64,000 nt of DNA, taken from Clostridia bacterium (lineage in GTDB: Bacteria > CBDUZB01 > JAGLHV01). The stretch spans positions 5,802 through 69,801 of the forward strand of contig DAOVVV010000008.1 of NCBI GenBank assembly GCA_030637025.1, given 5' to 3'. Position 1 is the stretch's first letter; every line of letters starts with the position of its first letter. Below, in pieces: positions 2,553-54,120 of the stretch. The position numbers were made by a program, and so were the translations under genes. Below the pieces are notes generated by a model that searched no databases, was not told the origin of the DNA, and saw only the letters and a program-made list of their open reading frames with translations.

Positions 2553-2702
2553 TGGCAGTCGCAACCTTTAGGTTGCGTTCTCAGAGGAGATTTTCCGCAG
2601 GCTTTAGCCTGCGACTACCAAAAAGGGAGTTATGACACACTCTGTTCGCAGGAATCCATTTTGTCGACGATATCCTGGATTCCCGCTTTCGCGGGAATAA
2701 CA
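2553..2702. repeat. ~70-bp palindromic element (tggcagtcgc-hairpin-hairpin-gcgactacca) followed by REP-like half sites
   Basis: Copies at 4973-5038, 16375-16525, 35596-35627 and 53376-53403. Contains gcaacctttaggttgc and gcaggctttagcctgc hairpins. Confidence 0.6.
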
Positions 2703-4905: not shown

Positions 4906-4972
4906 TGAAAGTGTCAAAAAAGGAATGGCAAGAAAAACAGAAAGAAGTTTGTAGATAAAGAGAAAATCGGGG

Positions 4973-5038
4973 GGTAGCCGCAGGCTTTAGCCTGCGTTAT
5001 CGTTGGAGATTTTACGCAGGCTAAAGCCTGCGACTACA
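4973..5038. repeat. palindromic element copy (ggtagccgcaggctttagcctgcg...cgcaggctaaagcctgcgactaca)
   Basis: Same architecture as 2553-2620. Two internal 16-bp hairpins flanked by inverted ends. Confidence 0.6.
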
Positions 5039-5109
5039 AAAACAGAAATCAGAACAGAAATATGCAGATATTTTTGACAATACTAAAGGAATATTGAAAG
5101 AGATAAAAA

Positions 5110-11541: not shown

Positions 11542-11685
11542 GATTCCTGCTTTCGCAGGAATGACAGAATGGAAAAAGGAATGACAGAATAAGAACAGGA
11601 ATGACCCTCCTTATTCTCCGCCTCAGGCGGATGAGGCGGAACGGAGAGGCACGTAGAATAAGAATAGAATCAGTGCGGAATGATT
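11542..11685. repeat. cluster of repeat modules (REP-like palindrome, ggaatgac repeats, ccgcctcaggcgg palindrome, cagtgcggaatga)
   Basis: Right flank of the GIY-YIG ORF. Its modules are shared with the other repeat loci. Confidence 0.6.
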
Positions 11686-16100: not shown

Positions 16101-16344
16101 TGAAGGCAAACCCAATATCACCGATGCGATTAAAAACAAAAAAATCAATCTTATAATAAATACACCTATTGGCCGCAGCAGCAAATACGATGATAGTTTT
16201 ATTCGTATAAAAGCGATACAATATAAAATTCCTTATATTACTTCATTAATGGCTGCTCAAGCTAGTGTTGAAGGTGTTCAAGCTGTAACTAAAGCCAAAA
16301 ATTCACCTAAGTCCCTGCAAAATTATTACACGAAACTTATTTAA
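13123..16344 (+). CDS. carB: carbamoyl-phosphate synthase large subunit (1073 aa)
   Basis: Duplicated ATP-grasp halves, oligomerisation domain and MGS-like C-terminal domain. Confidence 0.95.
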
Positions 16345-16374
16345 AAAAAATCATAACTTACTCATATTTATATG

Positions 16375-16525
16375 TGGTAGCCGCAACCTTTAGGTTGCGT
16401 TATCGCCGGAGATTTTCCGCAGGCTACTTGTTCGCTCCGCCTCAGGCGGATTTGGAGGAAAGCCTGTGACTACCAAAAAGGGAGTTATGACACAGTCTGT
16501 TTGCAAGAATGACGCAGCAAGCTGC
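16375..16525. repeat. palindromic element copy carrying a nested insertion of the ccgcctcaggcgg module (16427-16460) inside its second hairpin, plus a 3' REP-like tail
   Basis: The consensus aggctaaagcct hairpin is split as aggcta[34-nt insert]agcct. The ends tggtagccgc / gtgactacca are retained. Confidence 0.6.
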
Positions 16526-16649
16526 AGATAATTAGACCCAAAGAGAAATTATTAAATTTCATTAAGTATAATTTAGCAGGCTTACAGTCTGCCATTATGT
16601 TTGGTGGAAAGATGAAAATATTGCAAGAGAAATTTGGGTGATTAAAAGC

Positions 16650-16678
16650 TTGACAATGTTACATTTAATATTTATACT
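16650..16678 (+). promoter_or_regulatory. sigma-70 promoter TTGACA-N17-TATACT
   Basis: TTGACA at 16650-16655 and TATACT at 16673-16678. About 280 nt upstream of the 16956 gene. Confidence 0.45.
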
Positions 16679-16744
16679 AAGACATATTTTGAAGAATAAA
16701 ATGGCACAATGATGTGCATTATAAGGACAAAGGGGTCCGATATT

Positions 16745-16767
16745 AAAGGGGCACCTTTTATTTTTTT
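16745..16767 (+). terminator. short hairpin (aaagg-ggca-ccttt) plus U-tract, a possible attenuator in the leader
   Basis: 5-bp stem, 4-nt loop, then tattttttt. Preceded by a 22-codon mini-ORF (ATGATGTGC...). Confidence 0.25.
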
Positions 16768-16783
16768 AAAGGTGTGAAGTTAA

Positions 16784-16924
16784 AGAGTTCTGCAAAATAC
16801 AATATTCTGTCATTTCGCTCTGCCTGAGGCAGATGATGCGGAATCTATAATGTTTTTAAATATCAATAGATTCCTGTTTTCGCAGGAATGACAAAAAAGA
16901 TAAAAAGCTATTTTGCAGAAGTCT
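16784..16924 (+). mobile_element. MITE-like composite repeat copy (TIRs agagttctgc / gcagaagtct)
   Basis: Same modules as 254-396. Its 3' end lies 31 nt before the 16956 ATG. Confidence 0.6.
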
Positions 16925-16955
16925 ATGTGAAGTTATTAAAAGGAGGAAAGGAAAA

Positions 16956-18545
16956 ATGAATTTACAACAACCAAATGCAAATGAAGCAATACAGACCTCA
17001 AACCGGTCAAGAAATGTTTCTCCGGTATCGGGACTTTGTACCCGTTGTATTGACGGATGTCGTGGTAACTGCGATGTTTTTAAAGCAACATTTAGAGGAC
17101 GGGAAGTAATTTATCCGGGACCTTTCGGAGATATTACTGCAGGAGGAGATAAAGAGTATCCTATAGATTATTCACATCTTAATATTTTAGGATATGCAAT
17201 GGGTGCGAAGGGACTTCCCGAAGGAGTCGAAGCCGGACCGGATACGGCAACTTTTCCGGCTGTAAAAACTGAAACCGAATATGGTTGGGACAAGAAAGTA
17301 AAACTGAAAGTACCTATTTTTACCGGGGCATTAGGTTCTACGGAAATTGCCCGCAAAAATTGGGAACATTTTGCCATTGGGGCCGCAATTTCCGGGGTAA
17401 CCCTGGTTTGCGGAGAAAATGTCTGTGGAATTGATCCAAAACTCGAGTTAGATGCTAAAGGTAAAGTTAAAAATGCTCCTGATATGGATCGTAGAATCGA
17501 AACTTACAGAAGATTTCACGGCGGCTATGGTGAAATATTAGTTCAAATGAATGTAGAAGATACCCGTCTGGGTGTTGCCGAATATGTGTTAAATAAACAT
17601 AAATTGGAGACGATTGAGCTGAAATGGGGACAAGGGGCAAAATGTATCGGTGGAGAAATTAAAGTAAAAAGTATTGAAAGGGCATTGGAACTCAAAAAAC
17701 GCGGGTATATTGTTACGCCGGATCCAACAGTTCATTCAGTGAAAGAAGCATATAAAGTTGGAGAAATTAAGGAATTTGAACGGCATTCCCGTCTTGGATT
17801 TGTTTCCGAAGAAGGTTTTTTGGCTGAGGTAGAACGTTTAAGAAAAATTGGTTTTAAACGTGTTACTTTAAAAACAGGTGCTTATCCAATGAGAGAACTG
17901 GCCATGGCGATTAAATACTGTTCAATTGCTAATATTGACCTCTTAACCATTGATGGTGCTCCGGGTGGAACAGGAATGAGCCCCTGGAGAATGATGCAGG
18001 AATGGGGTATTCCCACATTCTATTTACAGTCGATGACCCAGGAGATTTGTGAGAAGTTAACTAAAAAAGGAATGCGTGTTCCTGATATTGCTATCGCCGG
18101 TGGTTTTTCTACTGAAGATCATGTATTTAAGGTGCTTGCTATGGGTGCGCCTTATACAAAAGCTGTTTGTATGGGTAGAGCACTAATGATTCCCGGAATG
18201 GTAGGTAAAAATATTGGCCAATGGATGAAAGAAAACAACTTACCCAAAACAGTTTCTCAATATGGAAAGACAGCAGAAGAAATCTTTGTTTGTTATGAAG
18301 AGCTGGTTGATGAATATGGGAAAGACATGAAAGATATTCCATTAGGTGCTATTGGTATTTATTGCTTTTCACAGAAAATAAAAGTAGGGCTACAGCAATT
18401 AATGGCTGGTACCCGAAATTTTAAACTTTCAACTATTACCAGAAAAGATGTTACCGCTCTTACTCAGGAAGCAGCTAAAGTATCGGGAATACCTTATGTG
18501 ATGGACGCTTATCGTCAGGAAGCAGAGGCTATTCTGGAAGGTTAA
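16956..18545 (+). CDS. glutamate synthase FMN-binding domain-2-like protein (archaeal-type standalone GltB subunit) with N-terminal 4Fe-4S Cys cluster
   Basis: N-terminal Cys-rich CTRCIDGCRGNC motif, GltS FMN-domain signature and a glycine-rich FMN/phosphate loop. Confidence 0.7.
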   Translation: MNLQQPNANEAIQTSNRSRNVSPVSGLCTRCIDGCRGNCDVFKATFRGREVIYPGPFGDITAGGDKEYPIDYSHLNILGYAMGAKGLPEGVEAGPDTATFPAVKTETEYGWDKKVKLKVPIFTGALGSTEIARKNWEHFAIGAAISGVTLVCGENVCGIDPKLELDAKGKVKNAPDMDRRIETYRRFHGGYGEILVQMNVEDTRLGVAEYVLNKHKLETIELKWGQGAKCIGGEIKVKSIERALELKKRGYIVTPDPTVHSVKEAYKVGEIKEFERHSRLGFVSEEGFLAEVERLRKIGFKRVTLKTGAYPMRELAMAIKYCSIANIDLLTIDGAPGGTGMSPWRMMQEWGIPTFYLQSMTQEICEKLTKKGMRVPDIAIAGGFSTEDHVFKVLAMGAPYTKAVCMGRALMIPGMVGKNIGQWMKENNLPKTVSQYGKTAEEIFVCYEELVDEYGKDMKDIPLGAIGIYCFSQKIKVGLQQLMAGTRNFKLSTITRKDVTALTQEAAKVSGIPYVMDAYRQEAEAILEG

Positions 18546-21760: not shown

Positions 21761-22135
21761 GATAGTCCATAGACAACAAACAACAGAAAGTTATAAGTTA
21801 ATAGTTATGAGTTATAAGTTAAAAGAAAATTGAAAGACAAGAATAAAAAACAGGCACAAAGGCATCAAGGCACAGAGGCACAAAGTAAAAGACAAGACAA
21901 CAGATAGTCCATAGACAACAAACAACAGAAAGTTATAAGTTACTAGTTATGAGTTATAAGTTAAAAAAAAATTGAAAGACAAGAATAAAAGACAGGCACA
22001 AAGGCATCAAGGCACAGAGGCACAAAGTAAAAGACAAGACAACAGATAAAAGATAAAAGAAAGTTATTAGTTAATAGTTATGAGTTATAAGTTAAAGAAA
22101 TAAAAAACAAAGACAAAGACAAAAGAAAAAAGACG
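21761..22135. repeat. tandem array: two full 142-bp units (21761-21902, 21903-22044), a degenerate third, and a degenerate unit upstream
   Basis: Units are more than 95% identical. Each contains an 8-bp-periodic AGGCACAA x4 sub-repeat and a gttataagtta sub-repeat. The + strand is strongly T-depleted. Confidence 0.8.
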
Positions 22136-25454: not shown

Positions 25455-26591
25455 ATGGCCTGGATTCAAAAAACTTTAGATATAAACGAAAAACTTTCAG
25501 TTTTATCACATGATTCACAATACGATCTGGCATGTTCCTGCAGTATAAATGATGATGATCGCCGGCATCGCTCAAAAGAGGACAAGTGGATATATCCGGT
25601 TACTTTTCCTAATGGCGGCCGGTCTTTTTTGTTTAAGACTTTAATTTCTAATGTATGTGTTAATGATTGTAAATATTGTCCTTTGCGTGAAGGACAGAAT
25701 ACCAGAAGATGTACACTGCAGGCATATGAACTGGTAAAAGCCTTTCTTCAGTATTATCAAAAAGGTAAAGTGATGGGGCTTTTTTTAAGTAGTGGCGTAA
25801 TGGGTAATCCCGATAAAACAATGGAGCAAATAAATAAAATTGCTCTTATTTTAAGAAAAAAACATTTTAAAGGATACATTCATCTAAAAGTTATTCCCGG
25901 TGCTTCTAATGCAGCGATAGAGGAAACTGTTTCTTTAGCCAGTGCAGTTTCAATAAATATCGAAACTGCCGGCGAAAAGAATTTTAACCAACTTTCTAAC
26001 AGCAAAAACTATTTACAGGATATTATTAGGCCGCTTAAATTAATCAGCCGGCTTACCGGAAAAGGTTCTCGTTATAGTAGAGTAAAAAAAACGACGCAAT
26101 TTGTGGTTGGTGCATCTGAAGAAACTGACCAGGAAATTATTAAATATTCCTGGAACTTATACCGGCGATTGGGTTTAAACCGTATTTATTTTAGTGCTTA
26201 TCAACGGGGTTTAGGCGAACCTGATTTACCCGGGGAGATTTCCGGTCAAAGCAATAATGATATTTTAACTCGAGAGCATCGTTTATATCAGGCGGATTGG
26301 TTAATCAGAAAATATGGTTTTACGGAAAAAGAAATTCTTTTTCAAGCTGATGGTAATTTATCATTGACTCTGGACCCCAAGGAAACTTGGGCTAAGAATC
26401 ATCCGGAATTTTTTCCGGTTGATATTAATAAAGCAGATAAGTTAAAATTACTACGGGTCCCGGGTTTAGGATTGGTTACCGTTAATTATATACTTAAATA
26501 CAGGGAAAAGGGTGGATATATTCGTTATCTGGAAAACTTAGGAAAATTAGGAAAAAGACTGATCAAGGCAAAACAGTATTTAAAAATTTAG
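25455..26591 (+). CDS. radical SAM protein with C-terminal helix-hairpin-helix (putative DNA modification/repair radical SAM family)
   Basis: CVNDCKYC (CxxxCxxC) and a C-terminal LLRVPGLGLVTVNYIL HhH. No partner gene lies adjacent. Confidence 0.65.
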   Translation: MAWIQKTLDINEKLSVLSHDSQYDLACSCSINDDDRRHRSKEDKWIYPVTFPNGGRSFLFKTLISNVCVNDCKYCPLREGQNTRRCTLQAYELVKAFLQYYQKGKVMGLFLSSGVMGNPDKTMEQINKIALILRKKHFKGYIHLKVIPGASNAAIEETVSLASAVSINIETAGEKNFNQLSNSKNYLQDIIRPLKLISRLTGKGSRYSRVKKTTQFVVGASEETDQEIIKYSWNLYRRLGLNRIYFSAYQRGLGEPDLPGEISGQSNNDILTREHRLYQADWLIRKYGFTEKEILFQADGNLSLTLDPKETWAKNHPEFFPVDINKADKLKLLRVPGLGLVTVNYILKYREKGGYIRYLENLGKLGKRLIKAKQYLKI

Positions 26592-26595
26592 ATAG

Positions 26596-26735
26596 ACTTC
26601 TGCGGAATGACACATTCTGTCATTCCGCTCCGCCTCAGGCGGATGATGCGGAATCTATAATATTCTTAAATATCAATAAATTCCTGCTTCCGCAGGAATG
26701 ACAATAAAAGGAAAAAGGTTGTTTTGCAGAACTCT
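26596..26735 (+). mobile_element. MITE-like composite repeat copy (5' TIR agacttctgc, 3' gcagaactct)
   Basis: The 5' TIR is an exact reverse complement of the canonical 3' end. Its 3' end lies 30 nt before the 26766 ATG. Confidence 0.6.
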
Positions 26736-26765
26736 TAAAAATTCAGAAATAAAGGAGGGGGAATT

Positions 26766-34027: not shown

Positions 34028-35494
34028 ATGAAAATTTCAGTAAAAATAATATTGTCAATGATTTTATGCTGCCTGGCTACTGTTAATGTACAGGCCAAAA
34101 CTAATATAAAAGAAGCTATCGTAAAAATATATACTGTTTGCAACCGATATAATTATTATGAACCATGGCAAATGCGCGGTCAAAGAAGAGGAACGGGTTC
34201 AGGGTGCATAATTAATGGCAACAGAATATTAACTAATGCTCATGTAATTGCGGACCAAACCTTTATCCAGGTAAAACGGGCCGGACAATCAAAGAAATAT
34301 ACAGCAGAAGTAGAAATTGTAGCTCACGAATGTGACCTTGCTATTTTGAAGGTTAAAGACGATTCATTTTTTACAGGGGTTAAACCGTTGCAGATTGGGA
34401 AATTAGCAGAAGTGAGAGATAAAGTTGCTGTTTATGGTTTTCCGGTAGGTGGTGATGAATTGTGTATTACCGAAGGGGTAGTTTCTCGCATAGAACATCA
34501 GGCATATACTCATAGTAAGGCCCATTTATTAACCTGTCAAATTGATGCTACCATTAATCCCGGGAATAGCGGGGGACCTGTAGTCAAAAATAATAAAATA
34601 GTTGGAATAGCCTTTCAAGCAGGTGCAGGTGAAAATATTGGATATATGGTTTCTGTGCCGGTTATTAATCATTTTTTACAGGACATAAAAAATAATAAGT
34701 ACGATGGAATCCCTGATATTGGTATTTCCTGTCAAAAAATGGAAAATTATGCCCTCAGAAAAAAATATAATATGAACTCTAAACAAACAGGATTGTTGAT
34801 AAATAAAATTTATCCCGGCTCTTCTGCCGAGGGAAGATTAAAATCCGAAGATATAATCCTTGCTGTAGACAATAAAAATGTCGAAAATGACGGAACAATA
34901 GAATTCCGAGAAAATGAAAGAACATTTTTTATATATGTAATTCAAAATAAATATATCAATGATACTGTTAATTTTAATATTCTAAGAGAGAGTAAAATTA
35001 TTAATGTAAAAATAAAATTGACCACCCCGGTAAATTTTTGGCGGTTAGTTCCGCATCAACAGTATGATATTGCTCCGACTTATTATATTTTAGGCGGATT
35101 GGTGTTTGAACCTTTAACTCTGGATTTTTTAAATGAATGGGGTGGAGATTGGAATAATGATGCCCTTAAGAATTTAATCAACTATTATTATTCCGGAGAA
35201 ATATTATCCGAGCGAAAAGAAATAGTCATACTGGTGCAGGTTTTAGCCGATGAAATTAATACAGGCTATCATGATTGGAAATATAATGTAATTTCTTATG
35301 TTAATGGCCAAAAGGTAAGCATCATAAGTGATTTGGTGACCGCGATTGAAAAACATAAAGGAAAATATCATACAATAGTAGATGAACGCGGATATAAAAT
35401 AGTTTTAGATAAAAATGAAGTTGATAAGAACAATCAAAGAATTTTAAAAAAATATAAAATTAATTTTGACCGTTCGGAAGATTTAAAAAAATGA
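34028..35494 (+). CDS. secreted trypsin-like (S1/HtrA-like) serine protease
   Basis: Signal peptide, catalytic His (LTNAHV), Asp (CDLAIL) and Ser (GNSGGPV), then a ~250-aa C-terminal extension. Confidence 0.7.
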   Translation: MKISVKIILSMILCCLATVNVQAKTNIKEAIVKIYTVCNRYNYYEPWQMRGQRRGTGSGCIINGNRILTNAHVIADQTFIQVKRAGQSKKYTAEVEIVAHECDLAILKVKDDSFFTGVKPLQIGKLAEVRDKVAVYGFPVGGDELCITEGVVSRIEHQAYTHSKAHLLTCQIDATINPGNSGGPVVKNNKIVGIAFQAGAGENIGYMVSVPVINHFLQDIKNNKYDGIPDIGISCQKMENYALRKKYNMNSKQTGLLINKIYPGSSAEGRLKSEDIILAVDNKNVENDGTIEFRENERTFFIYVIQNKYINDTVNFNILRESKIINVKIKLTTPVNFWRLVPHQQYDIAPTYYILGGLVFEPLTLDFLNEWGGDWNNDALKNLINYYYSGEILSERKEIVILVQVLADEINTGYHDWKYNVISYVNGQKVSIISDLVTAIEKHKGKYHTIVDERGYKIVLDKNEVDKNNQRILKKYKINFDRSEDLKK

Positions 35495-35496
35495 AT

Positions 35497-35730
35497 AGAG
35501 TTCTGCAAAATAACGCATTCTGTCATGCGGAATCTGTAATGTGTTTAAAATATCAATAGATTTCTGCTTTCCAGACTGTGTCGCAATCCCTTTTTTGGTA
35601 GTAGCAGGCTTTAGCCTGCGGCTACCACATGAAAATATGAGTTATGACACAGTCTGTTCGCAGGAATGACTTGCCTTATCCGCCAGTCTTTAAGGCGGAG
35701 CGGGCAGGCAAACTACTTCGCAGAAAGATT
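35497..35730 (+). mobile_element. MITE-like composite repeat (5' TIR agagttctgc) with the short palindromic element (35596-35627) and ccgccagtctttaaggcgg module nested inside
   Basis: Largest copy (~235 bp). Its 3' end lies 30 nt before the 35761 ATG. Confidence 0.55.
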
Positions 35731-35760
35731 AAAAAATAAACTAAAAGGAGGAAATTAGTA

Positions 35761-40810: not shown

Positions 40811-40964
40811 AATTCCTGTTTTCCAGACTATGGCACAACTCTGATTTTTAAAGCAATTGTAGGGGCAACATTTATGACGCCCGTCGGAAAAAGTATTCAT
40901 CAGCCCAATCCTCCAAATCCGCCTGAGGCGGAGCGGGCAGGCAATAAAGGTAGAAAGGCTATTT
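40811..40964 (+). mobile_element. 5'-truncated MITE-like composite repeat (retains 3' end ggctattttacaaaagatt)
   Basis: Contains ccgcctgaggcgg and gagcgggcaggc modules. Followed by AAAGGAGG and an ATG-TAA mini-ORF (41005-41010). Confidence 0.5.
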
Positions 40965-45809: not shown

Positions 45810-45847
45810 ATTTTAAATTTGAATTAAATTGAAGGGGGAGGAAAAAA

Positions 45848-53167: not shown

Positions 53168-53375
53168 AATTGTAATAAAGGGTAATGTCAAAAATAAAAT
53201 GATAAATACTCAGAGAAGGGTTATAAATAAAAAAGAATTTTTTCATAATGTAGGACGGAAAGCGTATAATCTATACTTTGGATACTTCCATAAGAAAAGG
53301 TTTAATTGATAATTGGAAAGAGTATGTGTTTAAATGTTCGTTGGATTTTGATTTAGAAGGAATTATTAAATAAAA

Positions 53376-53403
53376 ACGCAGGCTAAAGCCTGCGACTACC
53401 AAA
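53376..53403. repeat. half-copy of the palindromic element (cgcaggctaaagcctgcgactacca) abutting the RBS of the 53419 gene
   Basis: The 16-bp hairpin gcaggctaaagcctgc lies 10 nt upstream of AAAGGAGG. Confidence 0.5.
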
Positions 53404-53418
53404 GAAAGGAGGAAAAGT

Positions 53419-53928
53419 ATGCAAGTGTATCGTTGTCGTGTATGTGGAGAAGTGTATATCGGAGATGAAAAACCCACAAGTTGTCCTTTTTGCGGTGCTC
53501 ATGAGGGGTATTTTGTTTTAGCTAAAGAATGGAAATTAATACATAGTGAGGTCTTATCCGATACAAGTAAAGAAAATTTAAAAAAAGCATTGGATTTGGA
53601 AATAAATAATACTAATTTTTACAAAGCCGCTTCGGAAAAAAGCAAAGATGTACATTTTTCCAGTATGTTTAAAGGTTTGTCCAAGGTGGAAAGAGAGCAT
53701 GCTTCAACTATATGTAAACATCTTAGAATAGCCAAACCGGAATCGAGTGTAGGAGCGGATAAGGCAGTTGATTCCGACCGGGCAAATATAGAAGAAGCTA
53801 ATCGCAGGGAAAAAAGTGCGGTTAAATTTTATGGGGAAGCAATTAATCAGGCACCGGAAGAAGCCATTAAAGAGTTTTTTAAAGCATTAATGCAGATAGA
53901 ATCAGACCATATAGCTTTAACCGACTAA
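53419..53928 (+). CDS. reverse rubrerythrin-like protein (N-terminal rubredoxin-like CxxC...CxxC + C-terminal ferritin-like diiron domain)
   Basis: N-terminal CRVCGEVY...CPFCGA and C-terminal E...ExxH ferritin-like helices. Confidence 0.65.
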   Translation: MQVYRCRVCGEVYIGDEKPTSCPFCGAHEGYFVLAKEWKLIHSEVLSDTSKENLKKALDLEINNTNFYKAASEKSKDVHFSSMFKGLSKVEREHASTICKHLRIAKPESSVGADKAVDSDRANIEEANRREKSAVKFYGEAINQAPEEAIKEFFKALMQIESDHIALTD

Positions 53929-53939
53929 AAATATTTAAG

Positions 53940-54091
53940 AGTTATGCAAAATACAATATTCTGCCTGCCCGCCAGTCTTTAAGGAGGGTCATTCCGCACT
54001 TGATGCGGAATCTATAATGTTTTTAAATATCAATAGATTCCTGCTTTCGCAGGAATGACAAAAAAGATAAAAAGCTATTTTGCAGAAGTTT
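53940..54091 (+). mobile_element. MITE-like composite repeat copy (TIRs agagttatgc / gcagaagttt)
   Basis: Near-identical to 254-396 and 16784-16924. Its 3' end lies 29 nt before the dfx ATG. Confidence 0.6.
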
Positions 54092-54120
54092 AAAAAATCT
54101 TTAATAAAGGAGGGAAGAAG

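Follow-up and report, generated by a model that had tools for sequence, protein, structure and literature searches.

A REPIN hairpin loop that probably acquired a piece of a TGTC-tagged REP in a genome of probable Omnitrophota origin

RAYTs are Y1/HUH transposases that act on single-stranded hairpin DNA, and the element IS1397 enters the loop of a palindromic unit; for the CGTC/TGTC-tagged REP superfamily, we know of no transposase. In the described REP/REPIN-RAYT systems (Bertels & Rainey 2011, PMC3116915; Di Nocera et al. 2013, PMC3733652), a GTAG tag stands beside a short GC-rich hairpin, two such hairpins form inverted extragenic doublets across a short linker, sometimes with different stems, and the RAYT gene is flanked by the same REP. 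The second superfamily, of which the Neisseria dRS3 repeat is a member, is defined by a CGTC/TGTC tag, an 8-9-bp stem beginning with AT, a 4-5-nt loop and a CCA-like tail (PMC3733652). Long self-complementary REP loops, REPs nested in other palindromes and mosaic arrays have been published as well (PMC3733652), as have REPs that serve as insertion targets (PMC1525189). The locus that we describe here lies in a 64-kb window (the whole stretch of DNA analysed) and shares with the REP/REPIN-RAYT systems all of the features just listed, including heterodimer stems (GCAACC + GCAGGC). It differs in that one REP loop houses the hairpin of another REP superfamily, and in that the host genome probably belongs to the Omnitrophota: the sources of homologs of the neighbouring Glu_synthase-family protein assign them to Candidatus Omnitrophota, and our literature search found no paper on REPs in this group. 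We think, with a probability of about 0.7, that the REPIN loop acquired a piece derived from a TGTC-tagged REP, and that in this lineage REP hairpin loops have repeatedly served as landing sites.

The doublet, its family and its RAYT

The stretch at 16376-16474 (features lie on the plus strand unless stated otherwise) is a copy of an element of about 70 nt, and from its sequence we class it as a GTAG-tagged REP doublet, or REPIN, of a family with a RAYT as its presumed cognate enzyme. Each half is built from an unpaired GTAG tag, two bases, a GC-rich stem of 6-7 bp and a 4-nt loop (GTAG-NC-GCAGGC-TTTA-GCCTGC), and the hairpins read GGTAG-CC-GCAACC/GCAGGC with the reverse-complement tag ACTACC. 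The first REP (16376-16399, GGTAGCCGCAACCTTTAGGTTGCG) comprises the tag GGTAG, CC, the hairpin GCAACC-TTTA-GGTTGC and a final G, and is followed by the linker (16400-16417, TTATCGCCGGAGATTTTC) and by the 5' stem of the second REP (16418-16425, CGCAGGCT). This arm pairs with 16461-16468 (AGCCTGTG), and the outer stem is intact, with eight pairs of which one is G-T; ACTACC follows at 16469-16474, and on the opposite strand GACTACC (16468-16474) reads as the GGTAGTC tag. Between the two arms lie 35 nt (16426-16460, ACTTGTTCGCTCCGCCTCAGGCGGATTTGGAGGAA) in place of the 2 nt found in uninterrupted copies (GCAGGCT-AA/TT-AGCCTGC), hence a net insertion of 33 nt, with a boundary that is ambiguous by about 1 nt because the loop consists of A and T only. 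The original prediction of an interruption at 16427-16460, in a hairpin that other copies keep intact, is borne out by uninterrupted hairpins such as 5016-5031 and 53378-53393 and was right to within 1 nt, though the string that it quoted carried one 'a' too many. As single-stranded DNA, the filled REP would consist of the 8-bp outer stem and a 6-bp inner stem, with an internal loop of 10+10 nt between them.

The closest uninterrupted paralog in the window (2554-2623; families D7 and D10) has the same GCAACC and GCAGGC hairpins and shares the right flank to about 2655, and a second uninterrupted REPIN (4973-5042) has GCAGGC in both hairpins. The window thus holds three copies in which two inverted REPs face each other across a short conserved spacer, and eight REP hairpins at five sites, all between ORFs; uninterrupted GCAGGCT-AA/TT-AGCCTGC hairpins stand at 2597-2612, 4980-4995, 5016-5031, 35604-35619 and 53378-53393. 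The stem variant of the first REP (GCAACC/GGTTGC) recurs at 2560-2577, and such partners of GCAGGC REPs are common among metagenome REP doublets. The REPIN-bearing unit at our locus is bounded by an outer inverted repeat, of which a left remnant survives at 16351-16358 (TCATAACT; fuller copies read CAGACTGTGTCATAACT, and L009 and L015 carry GTGTCATAACT at the same distance from GGTAGCC) and pairs with the right repeat at 16480-16499 (GGGAGTTATGACACAGTCTG, repeat family D10). The arrangement of REPIN and right outer repeat is also found in six metagenome loci (L037, L061, L084, L097, L136 and L140).

A genome scan with the REPIN linker found 10 loci in the related MAG CSMAG_496, the genes of which are 80-91% identical in DNA to those of the window. 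The linker GTTATCGNNGGAGATTTTNCGCAGG had no match in JGI metagenomes, so the doublet form appears to be restricted to this lineage, and only the bare REP is widespread. Indeed, exact matches to the 23-nt REP pattern GTAGNCGCAGGCTNNAGCCTGCG were found in at least 120 contigs (30-69% GC) from JGI metagenomes, where the GTAG tag is kept and the REP is usually paired with a second one of different stem; the host GTAG REP is both ancient and widespread.

The association with RAYT genes is seen in the related MAG and also in unrelated metagenome contigs. In CSMAG_496, an ORF of 191 aa (L020:6152-6727, minus strand) lies directly 5' of a solo REP, and its product matches Pfam Y1_Tnp (E 6e-7, above the cut-off) and the TnpA-REP structure PDB 4ER8 (E 7.5e-5), and scores 75 bits against the NCBIfam model 'REP-associated tyrosine transposase', just under the cut-off of 80; the sources of many homologs give them the name 'REP element-mobilizing transposase RayT'. 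Within the annotated N-terminus of this ORF there is a second REP (GGTAGCCGCAGACTTTAGTCTGCG). The ORF is flanked by the same REP, as are RAYT homologs at L111, L040, L152 and L153-L155, all with the GCAGGC REP on both sides. Within the 64 kb of the window no intact RAYT was found, only a deleted remnant (53199-53374) that keeps the N-terminal ~20 and the C-terminal ~35 codons, lacks the catalytic core and is 69% identical over 36 aa to the L020 RAYT (tblastn). Immediately 3' of the remnant stands an uninterrupted solo GTAG REP (53376-53400), the empty counterpart of a filled REP at L020:7888-7929. RAYTs are reportedly single-copy and vertically inherited (Bertels et al. 2017). CSMAG_496 departs from this with at least three copies at 84-85% identity, seemingly within a unit that has terminal inverted repeats and a non-coding derivative with an 8-bp target duplication, which sets it apart from the described REP/REPIN-RAYT systems; single-copy vertical inheritance is a typical RAYT trait rather than a defining one.

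What lies in the loop

The content of the loop reads A-CTTGT-TCGC-(TCCGCC-TCA-GGCGGA)-TTT-GGAGGA-A, where the bracketed palindrome (16436-16450) forms a third level of nesting. The palindrome CCGCCTCAGGCGG is present at 11618, 16437 and 26630, with a TGA-loop form at 40919 and a compensated variant CTGCCTGAGGCAG at 16820, making five window matches to the pattern where 0.16 would be expected. TGTC-type REPs have it in their loops too, at 26629-26643 and in L015 and L020, with a variant at 16819-16833. The hosts of these palindromes belong to a family of the form TGTC/CGTC-ATTCCTGC-GAAA-GCAGGAAT-CCA/CTA, with about a dozen sites in the window (copies of the TGTC form at 338, 11207, 11565, 12960, 16892, 19513, 19570, 26702 and 54059) and a sister form, TGTC-ATTCCGC-ACTTG-ATGCGGAAT-CTA. 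In four of the six aligned copies of the sister form the loop ACT is replaced by TCCGCCTCAGGCGGA, and the copy at 16809-16849 carries the doubly compensated palindrome variant TCTGCCTGAGGCAGA. With the described CGTC/TGTC REPs, including Neisseria dRS3 (PMC3733652), the window family shares the tag, an 8-bp stem beginning with AT (ATTCCTGC), a 4-nt GAAA loop and the CCA/CTA tail, and it likewise forms mosaic spacers together with other repeats, in a genome that has GTAG REPs too; it differs in that its copies sit within GTAG REP loops and themselves host a smaller palindrome.

Similarity between the insert and this family extends past the palindrome. The insert aligns with the TGTC-REP region 16796-16846 at 24/30 positions and with 26606-26656 at 24/28, including an exact 19-mer, and the related insert of L018 aligns with a TGTC REP at 22/29, including the tag region; each of these scores exceeded all of 2000 shuffles. 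Because the alignment covers the filled hairpin beyond the palindrome, the module that landed would have been a TGTC-type REP that already carried the palindrome, and the comparison supports reading the insert as a decayed hairpin of this type, originally of about 33-45 nt, with TCCGCCTCAGGCGGA in its loop. The window copy (CTTGT-TCGC...GGAGGAA) has a damaged TGTC tag and stem. Derivation of the insert from the adjacent linker was considered and rejected, the alignment being unconvincing. The recurrence of the palindrome that had been predicted for other places thus holds at 11618 and 26630, and at 40919 in the TGA-loop form, though what landed appears to be a TGTC-type REP hairpin rather than an independent 13-nt palindrome.

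A longer stretch of 27 nt within the insert (16433-16459) is identical to 40909-40935 on the minus strand, and none of 100 shuffles of the 26-nt search pattern was matched; the second copy lies not in a REP loop but in the right part of a MITE-like mosaic. A true MITE occupies the same spacer as our REPIN: 143 nt at 16783-16925, with inverted ends AAGAGTTCTGCAAAATA and TATTTTGCAGAAGTCTA and a 10-bp duplication TGTGAAGTTA at 16773-82 and 16926-35, and with the variant-bearing TGTC REP (16809-16849) inside it. It is absent from the sister strain L027, where a single copy of the target marks a clean empty site, and present in L028. The loop insert at 16426-16460 has no inverted ends of this kind and no clear duplication.

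The sister strain L027 (NCBI MAG GCA_030630345.1) keeps the same carB to Glu_synthase arrangement, with a neighbouring protein 97% identical to that of the window, and its REPIN has an insert at the same position and with the same ends. The middle differs: L027 reads ACTTGT-CATGCCATCTG-TTTGGAAGAA where the window reads ACTTGT-TCGCTCCGCCTCAGGCGGA-TTTGGAGGAA, and the inner palindrome is lost. Since the ortholog is filled at the same spot, the insertion predates the split of the two strains and would not be a recent event. The L027 insert keeps a TGTCAT tag; on its own it has no significant similarity to TGTC REPs, and its middle has none to anything. We considered the L027 middle as a second insertion and set this aside, independent decay of a longer TGTC-REP-like ancestor being simpler; the two copies would then have decayed differently after the split through small deletions and substitutions. 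At greater distance, the carB to Glu_synthase spacers of P0004 and P0005 (86% identity) are not syntenic.

Filled and empty loops

Related inserts occupy the loops of about seven REPs (16419-67 in the window, L027:3497-3537, two copies in L015, L020:7894-7928, L018:919-961 and L152:4949-5031), and one further copy in L007 is truncated, ending after ACTTGT. The ends CTTG...GGAGGA are common to seven copies; the inserts of L015 and of L020:7894-7928 are the identical 22-mer TTCTTGTCCGCCTGTGGAGGAA, L152 has this 22-mer with one substitution, within the REP across the linker, and L018 has a 29-nt form. Against these stand 21 uninterrupted GCAGGC hairpins in the lineage; these small copy numbers come from about 64 kb of the window genome and about 90 kb from relatives. 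Filled and empty states coexist in each structural context, whether within the REPIN subfamily, in the solo REP that follows the RAYT or in REPs on one side of the linker or the other. The clearest pair is found 3' of RAYT genes and sets L020:7860-8000, which is filled, against L020:6090-6250 and window 53280-53440, which are both empty, in otherwise near-identical flanks. Loops of 4 nt were found in 201 of the 213 strictly matched REPs in the scanned loci, although about two thirds of these were selected by the search pattern itself; in addition, partner REPs that the pattern had not selected have loops of 4-5 nt, and the loop is 4 nt long in every REP that flanks a RAYT in L153-L155 and in the one 3' of the L152 RAYT. 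The long loop is hence the derived state.

Other lineages carry different palindromes in their REP loops, with a 20-nt insert in L055 and L107, one of 25 nt in L040 and one containing CCGCCTCAGCGGG in L054; a relaxed hairpin scan (one mismatch, loops up to 60 nt) gave mostly noise in GC-rich contigs, and these four are the strict matches that we kept. Published long-loop families such as E. coli GTAG-3 and Bradyrhizobium GTAG-14, with an inner paired region of up to 27 bp, also combine short and long loops (PMC3733652); here, in distinction, the long loop has a traceable source in one particular other repeat family, and filled and empty copies stand in matching contexts.

Nesting also runs in reverse. 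The REPIN subfamily is bounded by the outer inverted repeat CAGACTGTGTCATAAC...GTTATGACACAGTCTG, which also accompanies REP doublets in unrelated metagenome contigs, and in the complete example, at 35560-35670, an outer-repeat unit with one GTAG REP interrupts the loop of a TGTC-type REP (ATTTCTGC-TTTC, unit, TTC-GCAGGAAT / TTC-GCAGGAATGAC). The same half-hairpins flank the unit at 16500-16516, at 2645-2655 and in L015, L007 and L027; the one at our locus (16500-16516, minus strand, TGCGTC-ATTCTTGC-AAA) represents the 5' half of a CGTC-tagged REP whose loop the REPIN-bearing unit has split. Loop occupancy is recurrent in three forms: the insert family in other GTAG REPs, the palindrome in TGTC REPs and the GTAG-bearing unit in TGTC REPs. 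Such palindrome-in-palindrome organisation is shared with REP dimers within larger palindromes in Anabaena variabilis (GTAG-15), Thermomicrobium roseum (GTAG-23) and Halothiobacillus neapolitanus (CGTC-1) (PMC3733652), the counterparts here being the outer repeat around the REPIN and the unit's place in the TGTC REP loop, whereas nesting here runs both ways between the two superfamilies and reaches three or four levels. With enterobacterial BIMEs and REP-specific insertion sequences (IS1397, ISKpn1, IS621, ISPpu9/10; PMC1525189), the locus shares mosaics of palindromic units and linkers, and REP hairpins as insertion targets; the difference is that the inserted piece is 20-35 nt long, non-coding and without recognisable IS ends.

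Because filled and empty copies share near-identical flanks, and because presence/absence differences of repeat modules are seen between relatives, we conclude that the modules turn over. The original prediction went further, holding that they move or are copied into each other and are not merely ancient structure. Its core survives: copies with the insert and copies without it both exist, so the case in which every copy carries the interruption, which would make it ancestral, does not arise. It needs trimming in that 'moving' is inseparable from template-switch copying or from the spread of a filled REP, and in that the host REP itself is ancient and widespread, with an insertion older than the L027 split. 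As to flanking duplications at the insertion point, no unambiguous target duplication is visible, and the A/T-only loop (TTTA or TAAA) hides duplications of 1-2 nt.

How the loop may have been filled, and what it means

In the reading that we prefer, the 4-nt loop of the second REP would have gained a piece of about 33 nt from the TGTC/CGTC-tagged REP family of the same genome, many members of which already have the palindrome TCCGCCTCAGGCGGA in their loops, giving three nested hairpins. Loops may be targeted since they would form the single-stranded part of extruded hairpins, and the candidate routes are single-stranded DNA transposition, copy-choice template switching during replication or repair, or the spread of one filled REP. 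The resulting element would have no dedicated function beyond the usual REP effects, such as a hairpin at transcript ends or protein binding.

How many times loops were filled is the point on which a possible, though somewhat doubtful, alternative turns: one ancestral filling might have founded a long-loop REP subfamily that was then copied by RAYT or by REP-to-REP gene conversion, with minute inversions and deletions producing the variants. The inserts of CSMAG_496 all point the same way with respect to the GTAG tag, and four of them share the 22-mer (one with one substitution), which in the two L015 copies and at L020:7888 has an identical loop position and orientation; in the L018 composite, the third REP is filled, and its counterpart in the RAYT unit is the 3' REP, likewise filled at L020:7888. 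In addition, loops flip between TTTA and TAAA in copies that are 97% identical, so small inversions do occur, and REP families with both short and long self-complementary loops have been published (PMC3733652). A few events followed by the spread of a filled REP would explain much of this without recurrent targeting of loops, but filled and empty REPs stand side by side in each structural context, and a first entry of a TGTC-REP-like piece into a loop is still required, so that this account competes with ours on the number of events only.

We consider it rather unlikely, though a serious alternative, that the loop was nicked or broken by a hairpin nuclease or RAYT and then patched by copying another repeat through GC-rich microhomology, with no transposition at all. 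What was inserted is an incomplete and variable stretch of a TGTC REP that lacks clear ends and a target duplication, the 27-mer looks like a chimera (TCCTCCAAA being typical of REP-loop inserts and TCCGCCTGAGGCGGAGCG of the MITE module at 35676-35705), and the variant TCTGCCTGAGGCAGA has paired compensatory changes, as intra-strand templating predicts; the TTTA/TAAA flips also fit template switching. The ends shared by seven copies, on the other hand, suggest a defined unit. In a further reading, single-stranded hairpin loops may be specific integration sites through which both superfamilies spread, the RAYT-dependent GTAG type and the CGTC/TGTC type, TGTC REPs entering GTAG loops and the reverse by an HUH-type single-stranded DNA reaction, perhaps with the multi-copy RAYT unit as its source; we regard this stronger proposal as a long shot.

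We also think it improbable that the element, rather than being selfish DNA, is maintained by selection as a structured RNA, such as a stabiliser of transcript ends or a regulator, between carB and the gene that follows. It does lie 32 nt past the carB stop codon, with a near-consensus promoter (16650-16678) about 170 nt further on, its predicted fold (-22 kcal/mol for the whole REPIN) is more stable than that of shuffled sequence (z = -3.6), and REPs are known to act on mRNA ends (PMC3733652). However, a search of 16300-17000 matched no Rfam family (there was one spurious sub-threshold eukaryotic match), no T-run follows the hairpin, the inner palindrome is lost in the sister strain and the same modules are found in many unrelated spacers and orientations. 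Finally, chance similarity or an assembly artefact, for which only the short length of the modules speaks, is rejected, since contigs assembled from three separate samples agree exactly over the intergenic spacer, the separate NCBI MAG has a related insert, the 27-nt stretch recurs exactly and shuffle controls expect 0-0.16 matches, for example 0.01 where the window has three copies of the element core, which share the linker GCGTTNTCNNNGGAGATTTTNCGC.

To return to the preferred reading, in which a loop acquired a TGTC-REP-derived piece, we see its importance as modest: this is real evidence of repeat turnover, yet of a kind that is ordinary for REP-rich genomes with REP/BIME-like mosaics. The traceable nesting of TGTC in GTAG REPs, and the reverse, is a tidy illustration of a known phenomenon and no new principle. 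It does place a REP/REPIN-RAYT system, together with a co-resident TGTC REP family, in an uncultured lineage that is probably Omnitrophota, and it provides clean filled and empty examples of REP hairpin loops that accept other palindromic modules. For annotation, it means that GC-rich islands in AT-rich spacers of this kind are repeat mosaics, as opposed to regulatory RNAs or arrays of the CRISPR type. If loops are indeed targeted, this would give a handle on the spread of REPs that have no known transposase, and if loops should prove to be specific integration sites, the orphan CGTC superfamily would gain a testable route of mobilisation.

Ends and copies of the RAYT gene unit

RAYTs, the Y1/HUH transposases flanked by REP hairpins, are usually described as immobile and single-copy; the RAYT gene unit examined here seems to be mobile itself. 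At least three RAYT copies, 84-85% identical to one another, are found in the related MAG CSMAG_496 (L020:6152-6727, L020:7929-8000 and L152:3001-3525). The unit begins with GGTAGTGTCAAAAATAAA immediately before the ATG, and at its 3' end runs through the 3' REP and further to TTTTGACATTAC. There is also a non-coding derivative of about 320 nt, which has the same inverted ends as the RAYT unit and retains the start-codon region and the REPs. Its copy in L018, another CSMAG_496 locus, has an 8-bp duplication on both sides (TTAAACTG / TTAAATTG), and the syntenic site in the window is without it. These observations on unit and derivative come from L152:2983-3580, L020:6119-6760, L018:693-1014 and, in the window, 4908-5090 and 45826-45833.

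CSMAG_496, accession JAUVLC01 and the source of L007-L020 and L152, carries the title 'Clostridia bacterium', which is probably a mislabel: its DNA is 80-91% identical to the window, and homologs of the window's proteins are labelled Omnitrophota.

Promoter, leader and MITE before the Glu_synthase-family gene

A near-consensus promoter (TTGACA-17-TATACT) and a leader of about 70 nt, ending in a hairpin and T-run, precede the Glu_synthase-family gene (window 16650-16775) and are kept in the sister strain; the leader has no match in Rfam. The same spacer holds a 143-nt MITE (16783-16925). Its ends read AAGAGTTCTGCAAAATA, it is flanked by a target duplication of 10 bp (16773-16782 and 16926-16935), and the sister strain L027 lacks it at this site. 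Five related copies occur in the window, with coordinates given as 237-400, 26578-26740, 35481-35735 and 53934-54095.

Elsewhere in the window, a 142-nt unit rich in GTTATAAGTTA motifs is tandemly repeated at 98% identity, with a third partial copy (21761-22100), and related pieces occur in the CSMAG_496 locus L013. At 11565-11640, the TGTC REP is represented by three 5' halves in tandem, each truncated (TCTGTCATTCCT...); after them comes TCCGCCTCAGGCGGATGAGGCGGA, which is able to form two alternative hairpins.

REPs across lineages

Small palindromes are also found within REP loops of other lineages (L055:735-800, L107:185-260 and L085:2837-2880), where a GCAACC REP hosts CTGCCTACCGGCAGGCAGG and a GTAG-tagged GGGGCA/TGCCCC hairpin hosts TCCGCCTGAGGCGGA.

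The exact 23-nt REP GTAGNCGCAGGCTNNAGCCTGCG is common to JGI metagenome contigs (L029-L148) whose GC content spans 30-69%. Identity to the L020 RAYT is just 42-47% for the RAYT proteins adjoining it there, whose homologs carry labels including WOR-3, Nitrospirota and Spirochaetota, among others. A REP is not usually conserved across lineages in this way.
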